A DNA stretch of 64,000 bases from Gemmatimonadales bacterium (GTDB taxonomy: Bacteria > Gemmatimonadota > Gemmatimonadetes > Gemmatimonadales > JACORV01): assembly GCA_030697825.1 (NCBI GenBank), contig JAUYOW010000135.1, positions 8,556 to 72,555 on the forward strand. Reading direction: 5' to 3'. Positions within the stretch are counted from its first letter, which is position 1, and every line of letters starts with the position of its first letter. Below the pieces are notes generated by a model. The model did no database searches. It was not told the DNA's origin and saw nothing but the letters and a program-made list of their open reading frames with translations. Both the position numbers and the translations under genes were made by a program. This document shows, one piece after another, positions 22,422 to 44,715 of the stretch.

Positions 22422-22482
22422 TGAGCGACCATGTCGCCGCCGGCCCGAACCACAGCGCTCGCACGTGTTAGGCTACCCCATT

Positions 22483-22725
22483 TCACGCGAGGTCAGCCAG
22501 ACGGACACCGCGGCCGCGCCGCAGCGCCTCTCGTGCCCCAGCGACCTGCTCGAGGAACTCGGGATGGTGTTCCAAGCGGTACTCGAACCAGGCCTCCTCG
22601 GTGTCGAATCCGATCAGCACGCCAGCCGGGCGCCCGTGCTTCGTAATCACGATCTCCTCTCCTGCCGCCTGTCGCAGATACCGAGAGAAATCGTCCTTAA
22701 CTCGCGCCAGCGCCACCTTCTTCAT
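22483..22725 (-). CDS. Type II antitoxin, Phd/YefM family
   Basis: 80 aa. MKKVALARVKDDFSRYLRQAAGEEIVITKHGRPAGVLIGFD... is the classic Phd/YefM N-terminus. It lies downstream of, and overlaps by 29 nt, a RelE/ParE-like ORF. Confidence 0.8.
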   Translation of the reverse strand: MKKVALARVKDDFSRYLRQAAGEEIVITKHGRPAGVLIGFDTEEAWFEYRLEHHPEFLEQVAGAREALRRGRGVRLADLA

Positions 22726-23014
22726 CGGGCGTTCCCTCCTCTTTTAGCCAGGTCTCCGCCTGCGCCTTCGTCACGATGGCGAGAACCTCGACCCGCTTCT
22801 CCCCGACGTCGTAAAACACTCGTATATCCCCGACGCGCAATCGAAACTGCGGCTGCGCCAGTCCGCGGAGGCGCTTGATGCGACTCTTGCTAACGCGCGT
22901 GGGCTGGTGGGACAAGTGCCGGTCCATGGCATCCCGCACGACCGCCCGCAGGTTGGCCTTGAGCGCTCGGTACTGAGCCACCGCAGTTGGGGCGAGGATG
23001 ACCTCGTACGCCAT
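22697..23014 (-). CDS. Type II toxin, RelE/ParE superfamily (toxin-first gene order)
   Basis: 105 aa. ...RIKRLRGLAQPQFRLRVGDIRVFYDVGEKRVEVLAIVTK... matches the RelE/ParE core (YRLRVGDYRVIY...V.I..I..R). Confidence 0.75.
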   Translation of the reverse strand: MAYEVILAPTAVAQYRALKANLRAVVRDAMDRHLSHQPTRVSKSRIKRLRGLAQPQFRLRVGDIRVFYDVGEKRVEVLAIVTKAQAETWLKEEGTPDEEGGAGAS

Positions 23015-23073
23015 TCTGGCCAGAAGATAGCTACACTAGGATGGCCGGGCAAGGGGAGCCGGCGAACGGGGCA

Positions 23074-23299
23074 GCCTAACGAACAGGGTTTAGCTGCGGG
23101 CCGGCGCGTTGGCCGCGCTGGCCCCGCGTTACGCCGCCACAGCTCGCGAACCCAACATGCCAGCGCGGCCAGCCGGCCTCGTCAGCTACAACCCGAGCCT
23201 GTGCGAAAACACCGTTCTGAGCACCCCTAAGTTGTTGATTTACAACGCTGCCACTGCTGCCAAAGTGGCGTTTTCACACAGGCTCACCCGTAGTTAGGC
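23074..23299 (-). other. attC-like recombination site (R'' GCCTAAC ... R' GTTAGGC) interrupted by a 91-bp palindromic insertion
   Basis: GCCTAAC starts 1 nt after the ParE stop and GTTAGGC ends the site. Inner stem arms 23159-23194 / 23086-23122 are homologous to the site at 42364-42489. Confidence 0.5.
23195..23285. mobile_element. MITE-like 91-bp element with 19-bp terminal inverted repeats, flanked by a 4-bp direct repeat ACCC
   Basis: TIRs gagcctgtgcgaaaacacc (23195-213) and ggcgttttcacacaggctc (23267-285), 17/19 complementary. ACCC at 23191-94 and 23286-89. The interior is AT-richer than the surroundings. Confidence 0.4.
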
Positions 23300-23300
23300 G

Positions 23301-23594
23301 TTACAGGCGACTCTGCCACTCGCGCGGATCCCGACGCGCATGCAGAACTGCTAGAATCGCAATGCGCCCCGGTGTCGGCACGTAGTAGACGGAGAACGGA
23401 AAGCGGCGCAACCTTGCGCGGCGTGCATCTGGGGCGACCAGTTGATAGCCCTGAGGCATGCGTTGAATGAGGCCGAAGCAGACATCGACAGCACGCAAGA
23501 ACTCGGTGCCTAGCCCCGCAGCGCGGGTTTCGTACCACTCGGCAGCGAGCAGCATGTCCGTTTCGGCCGCTGCCCGGATCAGAAGGGTGGGCAT
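23301..23594 (-). CDS. Type II toxin, ParE/RelE family
   Basis: 97 aa. ...AAEWYETRAAGLGTEFLRAVD...RRARLRRFPFSVYYV...RIAILAVLHARRDPREW is a typical ParE-like toxin. Confidence 0.8.
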   Translation of the reverse strand: MPTLLIRAAAETDMLLAAEWYETRAAGLGTEFLRAVDVCFGLIQRMPQGYQLVAPDARRARLRRFPFSVYYVPTPGRIAILAVLHARRDPREWQSRL

Positions 23595-23810
23595 TTACCT
23601 GATGAGCTTGTACAGCCGCTCGCGTACCTGTTCCCAAGGAATGCCTGCTTCAGGGTGAGCGCGGTAGTCTGCCAGTCGCCGCTCGAGCTCTTGGAGATGC
23701 CACTCGGGGACTGGGATTTGCTCGTCGTCGATGCTATCCCAGAGATCCTCCACGAGCTGGAGGCGCTCCGGGACAGACAGGTGGCTGAAATCCATGAGTT
23801 TGGGTGCCAT
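23595..23810 (-). CDS. Addiction-module antitoxin (putative addiction module component family)
   Basis: 71 aa. LSVPERLQLVEDLWDSI...WHLQELERRLADYRAHPEAGIPWEQVRERL is the signature of this small antitoxin family. Its stop abuts the ParE start. Confidence 0.75.
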   Translation of the reverse strand: MAPKLMDFSHLSVPERLQLVEDLWDSIDDEQIPVPEWHLQELERRLADYRAHPEAGIPWEQVRERLYKLIR

Positions 23811-40662: not shown

Positions 40663-40783
40663 GAGCGGCCGTTGGCCGATGGCCATTGGCCGTTCGGCGA
40701 GCATGAGGGCGTGCCGCATCGCGACGTAGTAGTCCGCCAGGGCGCGCCTCACGCTCGACCACCGATGGCGCCGCACGCGCGAC

Positions 40784-40809
40784 GCGCCTATGCCTAAGCG
40801 GATAGGCGC
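40784..40809 (+). terminator. 8-bp hairpin (GCGCCTAT / ATAGGCGC, 10-nt loop GCCTAAGCGG) downstream of the SnoaL-like gene
   Basis: Read directly. There is no U-tract, so terminator function is speculative. Confidence 0.25.
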
Positions 40810-40931
40810 CGGGTGGGCGGGCCGGCTTGCCCGGTTGGTGGCGTGAGCGCACCTTGAACGGCGTCGCTGCGACCGGCCCGGGGGAACGGTGGCGCCGGCG
40901 CCGGCCGCTGCATATCATCGCGAGTCTTGCA

Positions 40932-41027
40932 GGCTAACTCGGCTACGGGGCCGAGCTATCACGCGAGCTTCGCAGCGGTTGTGGTTTTGGACGTGAAGCC
41001 CAATTGCTAGTAAAGACCTGGTTAGCC
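40932..41027 (+). other. attC- or attI-like site preceding cassette 1 (GGCTAAC ... GTTAGCC)
   Basis: The terminal 7-mers are exact reverse complements, and the complementarity extends outward (TGCAGGCTAAC / GTTAGCCAGGCA). There is an internal hairpin CTCGGC-TACGGG-GCCGAG. The inner arms are otherwise poorly paired. Confidence 0.35.
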
Positions 41028-41031
41028 AGGC

Positions 41032-41466
41032 ATGGCGACAGACCACGCACTGAAACTGGGGAAGCTTGTTGGCAACCTCCAATCCCTGGAGGCGGTTCTT
41101 CGCGTCTATCTGCTCAAGATTGGGGAGAAACCGAGACCGGCGAAGCAACAGTCGCATTCGTATTGGGATCTCGTCGTCGGCGACGTAATCAACGCTGACG
41201 AATTCTCGAACTACGACACCCTCGGCACTCTCGTCAGGAAATTCAACGACGACGTCCGCCCGCGCGACACCTCACTATGCGTCGACCCCGCAGTGGTAGA
41301 CGTTCGCGATCTGCTGGCTCACGGACGTGTCGCTGGCTCAGCCGACGACACGGCGACCTTGATGATCGTGAAGTTCGACAAACCGTCCGCCGGGACAGTG
41401 ACAGTGGTGGCGAGCGCCCTGAATGGACGACGCCTGGTTTGCCGCGAACGTCGCATTATCTTATGA
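41032..41466 (+). CDS. Cassette 1 ORF, hypothetical protein (144 aa as listed; 3' end probably frameshifted)
   Basis: Track ORF. The last ~15 residues (NGRRLVCRERRIIL) look out-of-frame, whereas the +1 frame from 41423 reads MDDAWFAANVALSYEQLIRVGKALERYAA and stops at the TAA inside the GCCTAAC box. Confidence 0.5.
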   Translation: MATDHALKLGKLVGNLQSLEAVLRVYLLKIGEKPRPAKQQSHSYWDLVVGDVINADEFSNYDTLGTLVRKFNDDVRPRDTSLCVDPAVVDVRDLLAHGRVAGSADDTATLMIVKFDKPSAGTVTVVASALNGRRLVCRERRIIL

Positions 41467-41506
41467 GCAACTCATCAGGGTCGGAAAGGCACTCGAGCGG
41501 TATGCG

Positions 41507-41604
41507 GCCTAACTTCCGGACGAACCCGATGGCGGAGTCGATTCCCGTTTCGCCGTGGCAACGCGCGTGCCGGCTCCACCCACGGGTTATCCGGCGCGTT
41601 AGGC
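41507..41604 (+). other. attC-like recombination site, 98 nt, canonical architecture
   Basis: GCCTAAC-TT-CCGGA-CG-AACCCG ...(variable)... CGGGTT-A-TCCGG-CGC-GTTAGGC. It has R and L box pairing, an unpaired spacer and extrahelical bases. It starts 41 nt after the ORF stop. Confidence 0.7.
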
Positions 41605-41631
41605 GGCCCGCTAGAGATCGAGGACTGTCCG

Positions 41632-42330
41632 TTGGACGCGATTGACTGGAGAAGGATTGTGCGCTACTTGCCTTCATCGTCCCAATGGCGTAACTGGAGC
41701 CTTCCCAGCCGATTGACGGCGATAGGCGCGGCGATTTCAGTCGTTTCTCTCATAGTAGCTGTTGTGCTTGCATTGCTCGACCAAGCTGCGGATCGGAGCC
41801 GCGCTCGCTTGATGGAGGAGGAAGCCGAGCTACGAAGTCGGCTCGAGTCCGCTGCCCTATCATCAGTTCAGGGCAAGCAGGACGAGCAGTTCCTTGCGCT
41901 CCTCTCGGCGCTCGCGGTGCTTATTGGTGAGCAATCTTCTCTCTCTAGCCGAGTGGCCGATACGGTCACTTTTTCCGGCACAGGCGTTGGCGAGTTCCCG
42001 ACCGGTCTCGCAGTTCTGTCGCGAGTCTTTCAGCAGGATTACCCAGGTGTAGCGAACGACGAGTTGCTTGTCGAGATCGTTGTCGGGTTACCTTCTCCTT
42101 CCGGGCAGAACGACGCACGCCCTGGGGTGCTCGTACAGATTCACCAGCAGGGCTTAAGCTACGAGACGAACGTCTTTCGCGTTGGTGAGCTCGAGCCCCA
42201 TGTTCTCATGCGGGCCCTCGCTGCGGCTGGATTACGCGTGTCCTCAGAGGTCGCGGCCGAAGGCGGCGTCTGGGTCACGATATTCGACCCCGCAAACGGG
42301 AAATCTGCAAGACTTCGAGCGCCGTCTTGA
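41632..42330 (+). CDS. Cassette 2 ORF, single-pass membrane protein of unknown function (start TTG 41632 or GTG 41659)
   Basis: 232 aa. One TM (LTAIGAAISVVSLIVAVVLALL), a charged coiled-coil-like stretch, then a ~130-aa C-terminal domain. No family recognised. Confidence 0.55.
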   Translation: MDAIDWRRIVRYLPSSSQWRNWSLPSRLTAIGAAISVVSLIVAVVLALLDQAADRSRARLMEEEAELRSRLESAALSSVQGKQDEQFLALLSALAVLIGEQSSLSSRVADTVTFSGTGVGEFPTGLAVLSRVFQQDYPGVANDELLVEIVVGLPSPSGQNDARPGVLVQIHQQGLSYETNVFRVGELEPHVLMRALAAAGLRVSSEVAAEGGVWVTIFDPANGKSARLRAPS

Positions 42331-42363
42331 ATCGATGCCCTGAGGCCAGTCTCCGGGTGGGCC

Positions 42364-42489
42364 GCCTAGTTAGGATTTGAACCTGCGGAGCCGGCTGGCC
42401 GCGCCGGCGACCAGGCGGTAAGTGGTTCAGGAACCGCGCACCGGCGCGGCCACGACGCCGGCTCACAGGTTAAAACCACTCTGTTAGGC
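42364..42489 (+). other. attC-like recombination site, 126 nt (degenerate R'' GCCTAGT, R' GTTAGGC)
   Basis: Long imperfect palindrome with arms at 42373-42408 and 42441-42477. It is homologous, with compensatory changes, to the site at 23074-23299 on the other strand. Confidence 0.6.
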
Positions 42490-42523
42490 AGCAGCGGTTA
42501 CTCACACGCACCTAGGCGGCACC

Positions 42524-42940
42524 ATGACCGCGTGGCTCATTCTCCTAATCATCTTCGTTGCCGGGTGTATCGGTGGCATTACCAATGCGGCGATTGCTGG
42601 CGAGTTGCGCTTGCCGTACACCGATCCCGAAGCGCGGGTCTACAGGCCTGGCTGGGTCGGGAACGTGCTCATAGGGGGCATAGCGGCTCTCGTCTTCTGG
42701 GGCCTATACGGCCCGATGGCCGCGGCAGTTCTCATGGGCCCTATCGATCCGGCGGCTCCGCAGCCTCTACTTCGAGTCTCTGAGCTGTTCGCGGCATTGC
42801 TCACGGGAATCGGCGGCGGTAGACTACTTACTGCGGAGGTCGAACGGCGCGTGTTCGATAGAGAGAAGAAGGCCCTCACCGATACGAAGGACGCTCTTGC
42901 AACTGCTGTTAAGAGCCTTGCTGAGGAGGTAAGACAATGA
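42524..42940 (+). CDS. Cassette 3 ORF A: small 3-TM glycine-zipper-rich membrane protein with a C-terminal amphipathic helix
   Basis: 138 aa. TM segments WLILLIIFVAGCIGGITNAAIAG, WVGNVLIGGIAALVFWGLYGPMAAAVLMG, LFAALLTGIGGGRLL. ATGA overlap with ORF B. Confidence 0.6.
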   Translation: MTAWLILLIIFVAGCIGGITNAAIAGELRLPYTDPEARVYRPGWVGNVLIGGIAALVFWGLYGPMAAAVLMGPIDPAAPQPLLRVSELFAALLTGIGGGRLLTAEVERRVFDREKKALTDTKDALATAVKSLAEEVRQ

Positions 42941-43389
42941 CGGACGGCACTCCAAAGGCACCCGATATCGATGCAATTGAGCTTATCGAAACGCTCGCAA
43001 CCCAGATCCCGAGCTCCAGTTCCTTTACCTCGGCAAGCCTAGCCCAACAGATCCTGGAGCAAACCCGTCGGCTCCACGCCTTCCGCAGTGCCCTCGTGGT
43101 TGGCCGCGAGGCGGGCGCCAAGGCCCACGAGATGGTCGAGGCGCAGGTACAGGAGGCGGAGGTCGGGAAGACCTACCAAGGCAAGGTGAAGACGACGACG
43201 GCCTTCGGGGCGTTCGTCGAGATCTTGCCCGGGGTGGAGGGACTGGTCCACATCTCGGAGCTCCAGCACGGCCGCACCGAGAAGACCGAAGACGTCGTGA
43301 AGAAGGGCGACTCGGTCACGGTCAAGGTGCTGGAGGTCGACGAGCACGGGAAGATGAGGCTCTCGCGCAAGGCGGTGCTCGAGAAGTAG
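42937..43389 (+). CDS. Cassette 3 ORF B: chimeric protein, novel ~55-aa N-terminus fused to a PNPase-like linker plus S1 RNA-binding domain
   Basis: The C-terminal AEVGKTYQGKVKTTTAFGAFVEILPGVEGLVHISEL...GDSVTVKVLEVDEHGKMRLSRKA is an S1 domain closest in style to the PNPase C-terminus. Codon usage switches at about nt 43100. Confidence 0.6.
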   Translation: MTDGTPKAPDIDAIELIETLATQIPSSSSFTSASLAQQILEQTRRLHAFRSALVVGREAGAKAHEMVEAQVQEAEVGKTYQGKVKTTTAFGAFVEILPGVEGLVHISELQHGRTEKTEDVVKKGDSVTVKVLEVDEHGKMRLSRKAVLEK

Positions 43390-43403
43390 GACCTCCTACT
43401 GAA

Positions 43404-43439
43404 GGCACCCACGCCCGGTAGGTGCCCGCACCTAGGTGC
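43404..43439 (+). terminator. Hairpin GGCACC-N11-GGTGCC followed by the 12-bp palindrome GCACCTAGGTGC, then a T-rich stretch; possible terminator
   Basis: Hairpin arms at 43404-09 / 43421-26, palindrome at 43428-39, followed by ...GCTGCTGTTTAGTATC. Confidence 0.35.
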
Positions 43440-43506
43440 CGCCTCGCTGCTGTTTAGTATCAAGTTTGAAGTGCAACAGCGGTTCATGAAGCAAAGCATT
43501 GGGGAG

Positions 43507-44715
43507 TCAGCCACTGCCTCGCGCGGGATTGCTTCGCGGCACGCCGAACGCGACCAAGCCGCCAATAGCCATTACCGCCGCCGCCGCGACGAACGCCGTC
43601 ATCGGGCCGGCCCGGTCGTATGATGCTCCGGTCGCAACAGGGCCGAGCAGGCGCCCCAGAGCGCTGAGTGACTGCGCGACTCCGAGGACCGTTCCCTGCT
43701 CCGCCGGGCCCGCCAGGACGGACACCATGCCGGTGGCCGCCGGAGAGAACACGCTCTGCGAGAAGGCCAGCACGACCGTCCAGCCGTAGAGCACGGGCAC
43801 CCGAGACAGGAACGGCACCGCGGCGACGCCGGCCGCCATACCGAACAGACCGAGGATCAAGAGCGCGCGGTCACCGGTGAGGCGCACCAGTCGCCCGAAC
43901 AGCCAACCCTGCACCAGCGCCGCGGTGACCCCGATGACGGTGAACAGGAACCCCAGGTCCCGCTCGTGCCACCCGAAGGTCGTGTTGGCGAATAACGGCA
44001 GCGCCACCGTGTAGCCCGCGAACGCGAAGGGCGCGAGCGCCCACACGATCAGGAGCGGGCGCAATCGAGCGTTCCTGAACGCCTCCGCCAGGTGCCTGAA
44101 CGGCCAGAAGTCGGTGGCGGTCCGGTGCTCTTCCCTGAGCGACTCCGGGAGTATCCGGTAGGCCAGCACGAAGTTCCCGAGGGAGAGCCCCGCGGCCACC
44201 AATCCGGGGCCGGTGTGCCCCCAATAGTGTCCCGCGATGCCGCCGATCGCCGGCCCGAGCGTGAAGCCGATGCCGAAGGCCGCGCCGATCATCCCCATCC
44301 CCTTCGACCGCTCCGCGCTGGTGGTGACGTCGGCGATGTAGGCCTGCGCCGCGGAGATGTTGCCGCCCGCGAAGCCGGAGACCAGCCGCGCGATGAGCAG
44401 CACGCCGAAGGAGGGAGCGAACGCGAACATGATGTAACCGGCAGCGTTGATGACGGTCGTCGCGAGGATGATCGGCCGCCGCCCCACCCGGTCCGACCAA
44501 CGGCCTAGCAGCGCGGTCGCGATGAACTGCATGCCCGAGAACGCGCCCATCAGCACGCCGAACCCCAGCGCGTTCGCCCCGAACCGCTGCGAGTAGTACG
44601 GCAGTATGGGGATGATTATCCCGAATCCGATGAGGTCTATCAGGACCGTGAGGAAGATGACGCCGAGGCGGCCTCTCATCGTCGGCGGGGGGGCGGGAAG
44701 CGGGGGCTCACCCAT
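43507..44715 (-). CDS. MFS transporter (drug:H+ antiporter / TCR-like); start uncertain (44715 or 44679)
   Basis: 12-TM style sequence. MFS motif A-like GRWSDRVGRRP. N-terminus ...LGVIFLTVLIDLIGFGIIIPILPYY. Confidence 0.8.
   Translation of the reverse strand: MGEPPLPAPPPTMRGRLGVIFLTVLIDLIGFGIIIPILPYYSQRFGANALGFGVLMGAFSGMQFIATALLGRWSDRVGRRPIILATTVINAAGYIMFAFAPSFGVLLIARLVSGFAGGNISAAQAYIADVTTSAERSKGMGMIGAAFGIGFTLGPAIGGIAGHYWGHTGPGLVAAGLSLGNFVLAYRILPESLREEHRTATDFWPFRHLAEAFRNARLRPLLIVWALAPFAFAGYTVALPLFANTTFGWHERDLGFLFTVIGVTAALVQGWLFGRLVRLTGDRALLILGLFGMAAGVAAVPFLSRVPVLYGWTVVLAFSQSVFSPAATGMVSVLAGPAEQGTVLGVAQSLSALGRLLGPVATGASYDRAGPMTAFVAAAAVMAIGGLVAFGVPRSNPARGSG

Follow-up and report, generated by a model that had tools for sequence, protein, structure and literature searches.

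At this locus the question is whether a small membrane protein and an RNA-binding protein, encoded side by side, constitute a conserved two-gene system. The analysed stretch (hereafter, the window) comprises 64,000 nucleotides (nt) of a contig belonging to a Gemmatimonadales metagenome-assembled genome (MAG), and the pair in question consists of two open reading frames (ORFs) on the forward strand, ORF A (42524-42940, +; 138 amino acids, aa) and ORF B (42937-43389, +; 150 aa), both with ATG starts. Their coordinates and lengths are exactly those given in an earlier reading of the same DNA made from the letters alone (the sequence-only reading), and so is the ATGA overlap at 42937-40, where the ATG of ORF B falls within the TGA of ORF A. 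A strong Shine-Dalgarno sequence, GAGGAGG (42923-42929, +), is situated inside the 3' end of ORF A, 7 nt before the start of ORF B.

We found that this apparently exotic pair of a membrane and an RNA-binding protein resolves into two facts, a conserved family formed by A and a small partner, denoted B', and the grafting of an S1 domain onto that partner. The sequence-only reading was right in treating the pair as one unit and a novel two-gene module, as the module is conserved, undescribed and moves as an integron cassette, but it consists of A and B', not of A and an S1 protein. The interpretation that we favour, with a probability of roughly 0.6, is that of a split, channel-like A/B' membrane cassette that has here received the tail of the housekeeping gene pnp, which encodes polynucleotide phosphorylase (PNPase).

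The A/B' family and its split and single-chain forms

Residues 1-54 of ORF B (42937..43098, +), carrying a conserved helix-SSSSF-helix motif, are homologous to small ORFs (B') which follow the homologues of ORF A and encode helical proteins of 55-85 aa; examples are the 65-aa ORF in locus L042, the 82-aa ORF in L046 and the 86-aa ORF in L002. The B' proteins share the core L(A/T)xQ(I/L)(P/S)SS(S/T)SFxS(A/V)x(L/I)A, and residues 15-45 of ORF B hold the B' motif L..L....SF.S..IA. Hence, the N-terminus of ORF B, described earlier as unrecognisable, belongs to a conserved family of small proteins.

We defined the A/B' family by a membrane gene with the motifs GxxGGxxN, PGWxGN, WGLYGP and GIGGGR, directly followed by a small ORF with the motif L..L....SF.S..IA. 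The window pair falls within this definition, ORF A carrying all four motifs. A significant B' gene was found in 39 of 52 A-family loci from at least five phyla, with the start at -11 to +26 nt from the stop codon of the A gene, so that the pairing is indeed conserved in other genomes. The 13 loci without a significant B' match are eight loci with single-chain proteins (L050-L057), three distant loci (L032, L036, L037) and two loci (L026, L031) in which the A gene is still followed by a B'-like ORF, albeit a weak or truncated one.

The family is broadly distributed. A scan of species-representative genomes for A yielded 32 loci in Verrucomicrobiota (mostly Udaeobacter), in Thermoanaerobaculia and other Acidobacteriota, in Planctomycetota, in a Methylotenera and in three actinobacterial classes, while the A-family profile retrieved 721 matches at E<=1e-3 from 1.84 billion cluster representatives (50% identity). 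The B' profile matched 418 proteins; the best 120 of them are 58-80 aa long, except for one of 155 aa, and among these 120 there is no Pfam domain and no fusion with S1. In the metagenomes scanned at JGI, no closer relative of the window B' was observed. ORF A is under strong purifying selection (dN/dS, the ratio of nonsynonymous to synonymous substitution rates, is 0.10 against the nearest relatives), and the B' core is under moderate selection (dN/dS about 0.27). None of the 82 close homologues of ORF A has a Pfam domain or an informative name, and the A/B' family, lacking a curated description, is effectively undescribed. Overall, A and B' form a widespread, conserved and hitherto undescribed two-gene module.

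The build suggested for ORF A by the sequence-only reading, that is, a small glycine-rich protein with three transmembrane (TM) segments and a charged C-terminal helix, is upheld by the family alignment and by the AlphaFold2 model. The hydrophobicity profile contains two strongly and one moderately hydrophobic helix. In the model, whose mean predicted local distance difference test score (pLDDT) is 85, TM1 (residues 3-25) is followed by a short beta-hairpin (32-41) and TM2 (44-62), and TM3 begins at residue 85 and continues as a single long helix to residue 137. Ten glycines are invariant in the family (G14, G17, G18, G43, G46, G51, G63, G95, G97 and G98), and four polar residues, N21, N47, E87 and R100, are conserved within the membrane part. 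The topology is presumably N-out/C-in, since by the positive-inside rule the C-terminus, rich in lysine and arginine, would be cytoplasmic. ORF A may thus be described as the membrane half of a split family, with a predicted cytoplasmic C-terminal helix.

The other half is seen in the single-chain relatives. In the eight loci L050-L057, single-chain A-family proteins of 150-177 aa were confirmed, and in the distant loci L032, L036 and L037 the A ORFs are 152-200 aa long. The single-chain protein P0362 ends in LLEDLKKSDSFESAAIAAQI, and its tail matches the B' hidden Markov model (HMM) at E=5e-7; the tails of P0437 and P0399 match it more weakly, and the matches of single-chain tails to this HMM generally are mostly weak. 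The major single-chain clade ends in IAxASPxEALRxA, which hhalign places opposite the B' core in the expected register (E=0.013), and MAFFT independently aligns the C-terminal motifs of the fused members with each other. The AlphaFold2 model of P0362 (pLDDT 82) has the same three TM helices and the same long helix running from TM3 into the cytoplasmic part, then a loop and three short B'-like helices at residues 139-174 (pLDDT about 83-85). The longer single chains carry the B' motif and are not accompanied by a B' gene; A+B' is therefore a single protein divided between two genes, the split counterpart of larger one-chain proteins (150-200 aa) whose C-terminal end is the B' motif.

Origin of the S1 domain in ORF B

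An S1 domain in ORF B had been recognised earlier, and the Pfam model S1 (PF00575) indeed covers residues 74-145 with E=2e-19 (70.1 bits at the gathering cut-off of 22). The best NCBIfam match of ORF B is TIGR03591 (PNPase), of which only model positions 599-689 of 689 are aligned; the score of 100 bits, at an equivalog cut-off of 525, is not that of a full PNPase. In a search of 5.8 billion proteins all matches of ORF B, except ORF B itself, cover only the C-terminal 62-64% of the query. These matches are the C-termini of PNPases, many of them from Gemmatimonadales, 75-91% identical to residues 55-150.

The same boundary is visible in the DNA. Homology to B' genes ends at 43058, and homology to pnp starts at 43095, extends through the TAG stop codon at 43389 and ceases at this stop codon, the identity to the pnp 3' end being 87% in L049 and 84% in L038. 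ORF B is a chimera of the B' core and the last 96 codons of a Gemmatimonadales pnp gene. Codons 55-150 (43099..43389, +) encode the linker between the KH and S1 domains and the S1 domain and end with the native pnp stop codon. The fragment thus resembles PNPase in the identity of the S1 part, in the linker that follows the KH domain and in the stop codon; it differs in lacking everything before the last 96 codons, including the RNase PH cores and the KH domain, and in its fusion to an unrelated N-terminus of 54 residues outside the pnp locus. As the extents of the two homologies demonstrate, the conserved B' core has been kept whole, and only its variable low-complexity tail and the cassette attC have been replaced.

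We also considered that the segment could be the native pnp locus. In relatives, however, native pnp is directly followed by a Peptidase_M16 gene, whereas here an MFS gene follows, and there is no other pnp sequence in the window; this rules out the native locus and makes the segment a displaced 3' fragment. It shows no decay, as the frame is intact, the native stop is kept, and dN/dS of the fragment against pnp genes (0.14-0.22) is similar to that of pnp against pnp (0.18).

The junction lies at a point where B' (ending in ...IVHGG or ...LVVG) and PNPase (...AVGGE) resemble each other, which suggests illegitimate recombination mediated by microhomology. A junction made by an integrase at an attC inside B' was considered as well, as GCCCAAC (43042-43048) and GTTGGCC (43099-43105) resemble R''/R' boxes; the stretch between them is not attC-like in its folding (z = -0.7), and this variant was rejected. 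The junction could conceivably stem from an inexact excision of a cassette at GWT sites (Loot et al., bioRxiv 10.1101/2022.09.11.507474), but this is unsupported, as there is no attC stem between B' and the pnp piece.

No other fusion of B' with S1 was found in the search of 5.8 billion proteins or among the best 120 of the 418 B'-profile matches. Hence, the S1 or RNA-binding partner proposed by the sequence-only reading is not the conserved partner of A, which is B', the S1 domain being confined to the window as a grafted pnp 3' fragment. The proposed logic of an RNA sensor coupled to a membrane disruptor depended on S1 and, as this domain is absent from the conserved system, is unsupported. 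The domain is a lineage-specific graft and is probably translated; it may be without effect, or it may anchor the module to RNA. In annotation, an 'S1 RNA-binding protein' at this place should not be read as a conserved function. At the same time, the graft illustrates how pieces of core genes can serve to rebuild the end of a cassette, which in this case lost its attC and gained a folded domain in frame, and the fusion may represent a rare natural domain capture at the edge of an array.

Mobility and possible function of the A/B' module

Outside the window A+B' is a true two-gene integron cassette. In L040-L045 the pair is situated between two canonical attC sites, in an array that also contains BrnT/BrnA and many small ORFs. 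The 3' attC of the homologous cassettes was located at 1291-1392 in L042 and at 1503-1640 in L034, a Verrucomicrobia MAG where it directly follows B'. In L002, A-B' adjoins a phage-type integrase and a tRNA remnant. Some single-chain and other relatives occur in similar company: P0404 adjoins a transposase, a copy on an Acaryochloris plasmid adjoins a Tn3 transposase and a CHAT-TPR gene, and P0362 sits amid a PIN toxin-antitoxin pair, a Lit-like Peptidase_U49 gene, an IS3 element and a Beta_protein+Peptidase_M78 pair, surroundings that look like a defence or mobile island. P0362 is placed between a 49-aa ORF and the Peptidase_U49 gene, in the same order in L050 (5001-6777) and L051 (591-2368).

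Other relatives have stable chromosomal neighbours. The order A-B'-c2-c3-DUF5069 is retained in about 18 species-level genomes of Udaeobacter, and the order Iso_dh-A-B'-Peptidase_S46 in Thermoanaerobaculia. In the Udaeobacter loci L008-L025, about 370-2200 nt past A, there are overlapping genes of unknown function (about 247 and 232 aa), DUF5069 and one more unknown gene; the neighbours c2, c3 and c10 have no family assignment, c7 being DUF5069, and these downstream genes may belong to a longer operon with A-B'. The single-chain P0346 is located 9 nt upstream of a Kir-type (IRK/Ion_trans_2) K+ channel gene in four contigs; in an apparent operon (L052, 4115-6421; also L053-L055) a gene for a 283-aa protein is followed by P0346 and then by the K+ channel gene.

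Based on these data, we propose the following scheme. A would be a small inner-membrane protein with three glycine-zipper helices, TM3 extending as a long charged cytoplasmic helix, and B' a translationally coupled cytoplasmic helical protein of 55-85 aa. Chiefly because of the split-versus-fused pattern, we take the cytoplasmic helix of A as the most probable docking site of B', which would complete or regulate A. Glycine-zipper packing faces are typical of homo-oligomeric channels. Given the invariant glycine-zipper faces and the conserved N21, N47, E87 and R100, A could form a homo-oligomeric channel- or pore-like assembly, with B' as a cytoplasmic cap or regulatory module; our best guess from sequence is therefore an oligomeric channel-like protein with a detachable cytoplasmic module, whose function would be regulated by B'. 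In this window alone, illegitimate recombination would have swapped the B' tail and the attC for the last 96 codons of pnp, in frame.

Several observations weigh against this scheme. ORF A has no match in Pfam, NCBIfam, PHROGs or PADLOC; neither the ORF A model, compared by Foldseek with PDB and BFVD, nor that of the fused P0362, compared with PDB, obtained a match whose E-value was 1 or lower; and a sequence search of PDB with the A and B' profiles returned nothing meaningful. The idea of a channel comes only from the character of the motifs and from topology. Taken one by one, the ASPxEAL tails found in the major single-chain clade resemble B' only weakly, and clear fused members are few. 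As for the graft, the chimera may or may not be expressed, the pnp fragment could derive from the host's own pnp or from a foreign one, and the second assembly described below probably comes from the same sample, providing a separate assembly and not independent biology.

Of the alternatives, the one that survives best, although we regard it as tentative, takes the module for a small accessory membrane protein that serves the homeostasis of ions or of the envelope, or the response to stress. B' would be a structural subunit, there would be no role in conflict, and the presence of the module in integrons would reflect the sampling of cargo. The conserved chromosomal positions in Udaeobacter and Thermoanaerobaculia, the K+ channel gene next to P0346 and the strong purifying selection on A agree with this, as does a sub-threshold similarity to DUF4257. 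The latter family (PF14074) and YLATT (PF20303) are small glycine-rich three-TM families with an unknown or predicted-effector function, resembling A in size and layout. Among 58 diverse A relatives, 12 match DUF4257 (best E=1.6e-5) and four match YLATT in the region of TM1-TM2, but the matches to DUF4257 (14-19 bits, profile positions 1-52 of 81) do not reach the gathering score of 27, and those to YLATT (10-15 bits, TM1 only) do not reach 26.7. ORF A itself has no match to either, none of the loci showed a YEATS-like partner, and the B' partner or the C-terminal motif is specific to the A/B' family; the literature on YLATT, DUF4257 and YEATS-like proteins yielded nothing usable. Against a purely housekeeping role argue the mobile and defence-island contexts, that is, the repeated linkage to attC arrays, integrase, IS or Tn3 elements; besides, the distribution over phyla is patchy, and no housekeeping pathway is linked to the module.

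A toxin-antitoxin or abortive-infection system, suggested by the sequence-only reading, appears unlikely. Here A would be a pore toxin and B' (in the window, B'-S1) an antitoxin or sensor, loss or triggering of which would let A depolarise the cell. Two-gene cassettes of sedentary integrons often are toxin-antitoxin pairs, and the present two-gene cassette occurs in attC arrays that also hold BrnT and ParE/Phd modules. The surroundings of P0362 and of the Acaryochloris plasmid copy point in the same direction, as do the weak similarity of some relatives to YLATT and the putative N-out/C-in three-TM layout with a charged C-terminus, similar to that of class I holins. Vice versa, the S1 domain is unique to the window, and many relatives fuse both parts, which poorly fits an antitoxin acting by differential stability. 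The fused forms, together with the stable synteny in Udaeobacter and within Thermoanaerobaculia, argue against a classical toxin-antitoxin system. With the type II systems of the same arrays (ParE/Phd, BrnT/BrnA) A/B' shares the organisation of two short coupled genes in one cassette, but it differs in having neither a known toxin fold nor a recognisable DNA-binding domain in B', in the membrane gene being the first of the pair, and in the halves often being fused. Neither A nor B' has a significant match in Pfam, NCBIfam or PADLOC; in the latter, ORF A and ORF B have no match, and B' of L002 has only a marginal one to PDC-M48B (E=0.001). What is retained of the initial suggestion is that ORF A may have a toxic or defensive role.

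That ORF B is an artefact, i.e. a misassembly of the cassette with a pnp read or a decaying, non-expressed pseudo-fusion, seems very improbable. It is true that the fusion is unique in the databases, that the attC of the cassette is missing, and that assemblers may form chimeras at the highly conserved pnp sequence. Two short contigs, P0107 (638 bp) and P0084 (987 bp), also join odd N-termini to pnp tails: unrelated N-terminal parts, one with a cytochrome-c-like CxxCH motif and the other acidic, are attached to the pnp linker and the S1 tail at nearly the same point, and these joins may be either assembly chimeras at highly conserved sequence or a recurrent pnp breakpoint. However, an independent assembler recovered the same structure. 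The Logan assembly L048 (run SRR13727529), containing a 223-aa ORF, A, the 150-aa B and the start of the MFS gene, is 99.95% identical to the window over 41442-43613, thus reproducing both ORF B junctions, and the pnp piece is flanked by non-pnp DNA on both sides, so that two chimeric joins would be needed. A pseudo-fusion is further opposed by the intact frame with the native stop codon, the strong Shine-Dalgarno sequence before ORF B and the dN/dS of the fragment, which equals that of pnp against pnp.

We assign a similarly slight chance to a bolder variant, in which A/B' would be a new membrane-pore conflict or addiction module, the B' cap closing the pore, and the B'-S1 chimera would have been selected because it ties gating to the status of RNA or the ribosome. 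If true, B'-S1 would amount to a 'sensor swap' that arose in nature, the captured tail being that of an essential gene of RNA decay.

Finally, class I holins (lambda S105) are proteins of about 100-140 aa with three TM helices, N-out/C-in topology and a charged cytoplasmic C-terminus, and ORF A, whose build the sequence-only reading compared with holin-like effectors, resembles them in size, number of helices, charged C-terminus and presumed topology. Beyond this architecture and the small second gene, however, nothing favours the idea that A is the holin of a phage lysis cassette, be it accompanied by an antiholin or not, and this idea is essentially refuted: a tblastn search of 50,697 phage records found no relatives, nor were any found in IMG/VR, neither sequence nor fold gave a match (no PHROG, no structural match in BFVD), no endolysin is adjacent to the gene in any locus examined, and A/B' is syntenic in free-living soil bacteria.

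Returning to the split channel-like cassette, the family is large, with 721 representatives; its members consist of a single chain or are encoded by two translationally coupled genes, and in the latter form they travel on integrons and genomic islands in several soil phyla. As most integron cassettes have no known function, a widespread family with split-versus-fused evidence is a reasonable experimental target.

The attC arrays of the window

An attC array ends with the cassette composed of ORF A and ORF B. The sequence-only reading placed the unit after an attC-like site, and this stands: an imperfect palindrome of 127 nt (42363..42489, +; folding free energy, dG, -69.5; z = -5.2), with the R' box GTTAGGC at 42483-42489, closes the previous cassette, and the 5' boundary of the A-B cassette coincides with the G|TTRRRY box of this site. 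The picture has to be corrected at the other end, as no attC follows ORF B. The R'' box of the site before ORF A (42364-42374) reads GCCTAGTTAGG instead of GCCTAAC, being degenerate and seemingly interrupted or rearranged.

The array starts with an attC-like site (GGCTAAC...GTTAGCC; 40932..41027, +) that was read from the sequence and whose ends pair in the predicted fold (dG -37). It is followed by a cassette ORF of 144 aa (41032..41466, +), a canonical attC of 98 nt (GCCTAAC...GTTAGGC; 41507..41604, +), which is the sole site of the window passing the strict scan (folding z = -3.5), and a cassette ORF of 232 aa with an N-terminal hydrophobic segment (41632..42330, +). Neither ORF has a match in Pfam, NCBIfam or PADLOC, and PHROGs gave only an insignificant match of the 144-aa ORF to phrog_13288 (E=0.074). 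In L040-L045 the A-B' cassette likewise comes after an ORF of 144 aa; on inspection, the sequences look unrelated.

The G+C content of the genome is about 70%, whereas that of the region 40930-43450 is only 55-65%. No integrase was detected in the 64 kb by tblastn with a tyrosine recombinase or by a scan for the box II motif, both being weak tests. As no recombinase was found, the array is of the CALIN type, that is, an attC array without an integrase (Cury et al. 2016, PMC4889954). Its similarity to CALIN elements extends to small ORFs on the same strand between imperfect palindromes RYYYAAC...GTTRRRY, to the lowered G+C content, to the toxin-antitoxin cassettes in a sister array and to the canonical attC sites bounding A-B' in other contigs; it differs in that the window cassette has lost its own attC, with the pnp fragment in its place, and in the degenerate R'' of the upstream site.

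The sister array, correctly described earlier as carrying toxin-antitoxin modules, is located at 22465-23810, about 17 kb away, with genes on the reverse strand. Its two cassettes encode Phd/YefM (22483-22725, -) with ParE (22697-23014, -), and Unstab_antitox (23595-23810, -) with ParE (23301-23594, -); the attC-like palindrome between them (23074-23300) is unusually long, about 230 nt. Both arrays look CALIN-type.

Rfam models had no matches in 40700-43700, and scans for promoters and terminators gave counts no higher than expected by chance. Downstream of ORF B, a spacer (43390..43506) separates it from the convergent MFS transporter gene, whose stop codon is 117 nt past ORF B. No R''/R' pair or attC-like fold was seen in the spacer, and it has no relative in any of the fetched loci; it contains a hairpin at 43404-43426 and an imperfect palindrome at 43445-43481. 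Two repeats bracket the A-B cassette, CGCACCTAGG at 42507 and 43427 and GCA(G/A)CAGCGGTT at 42488 and 43473. Together with the palindrome at 43445-43481, these repeats may be remnants of a lost attC or of the start of a neighbouring cassette.

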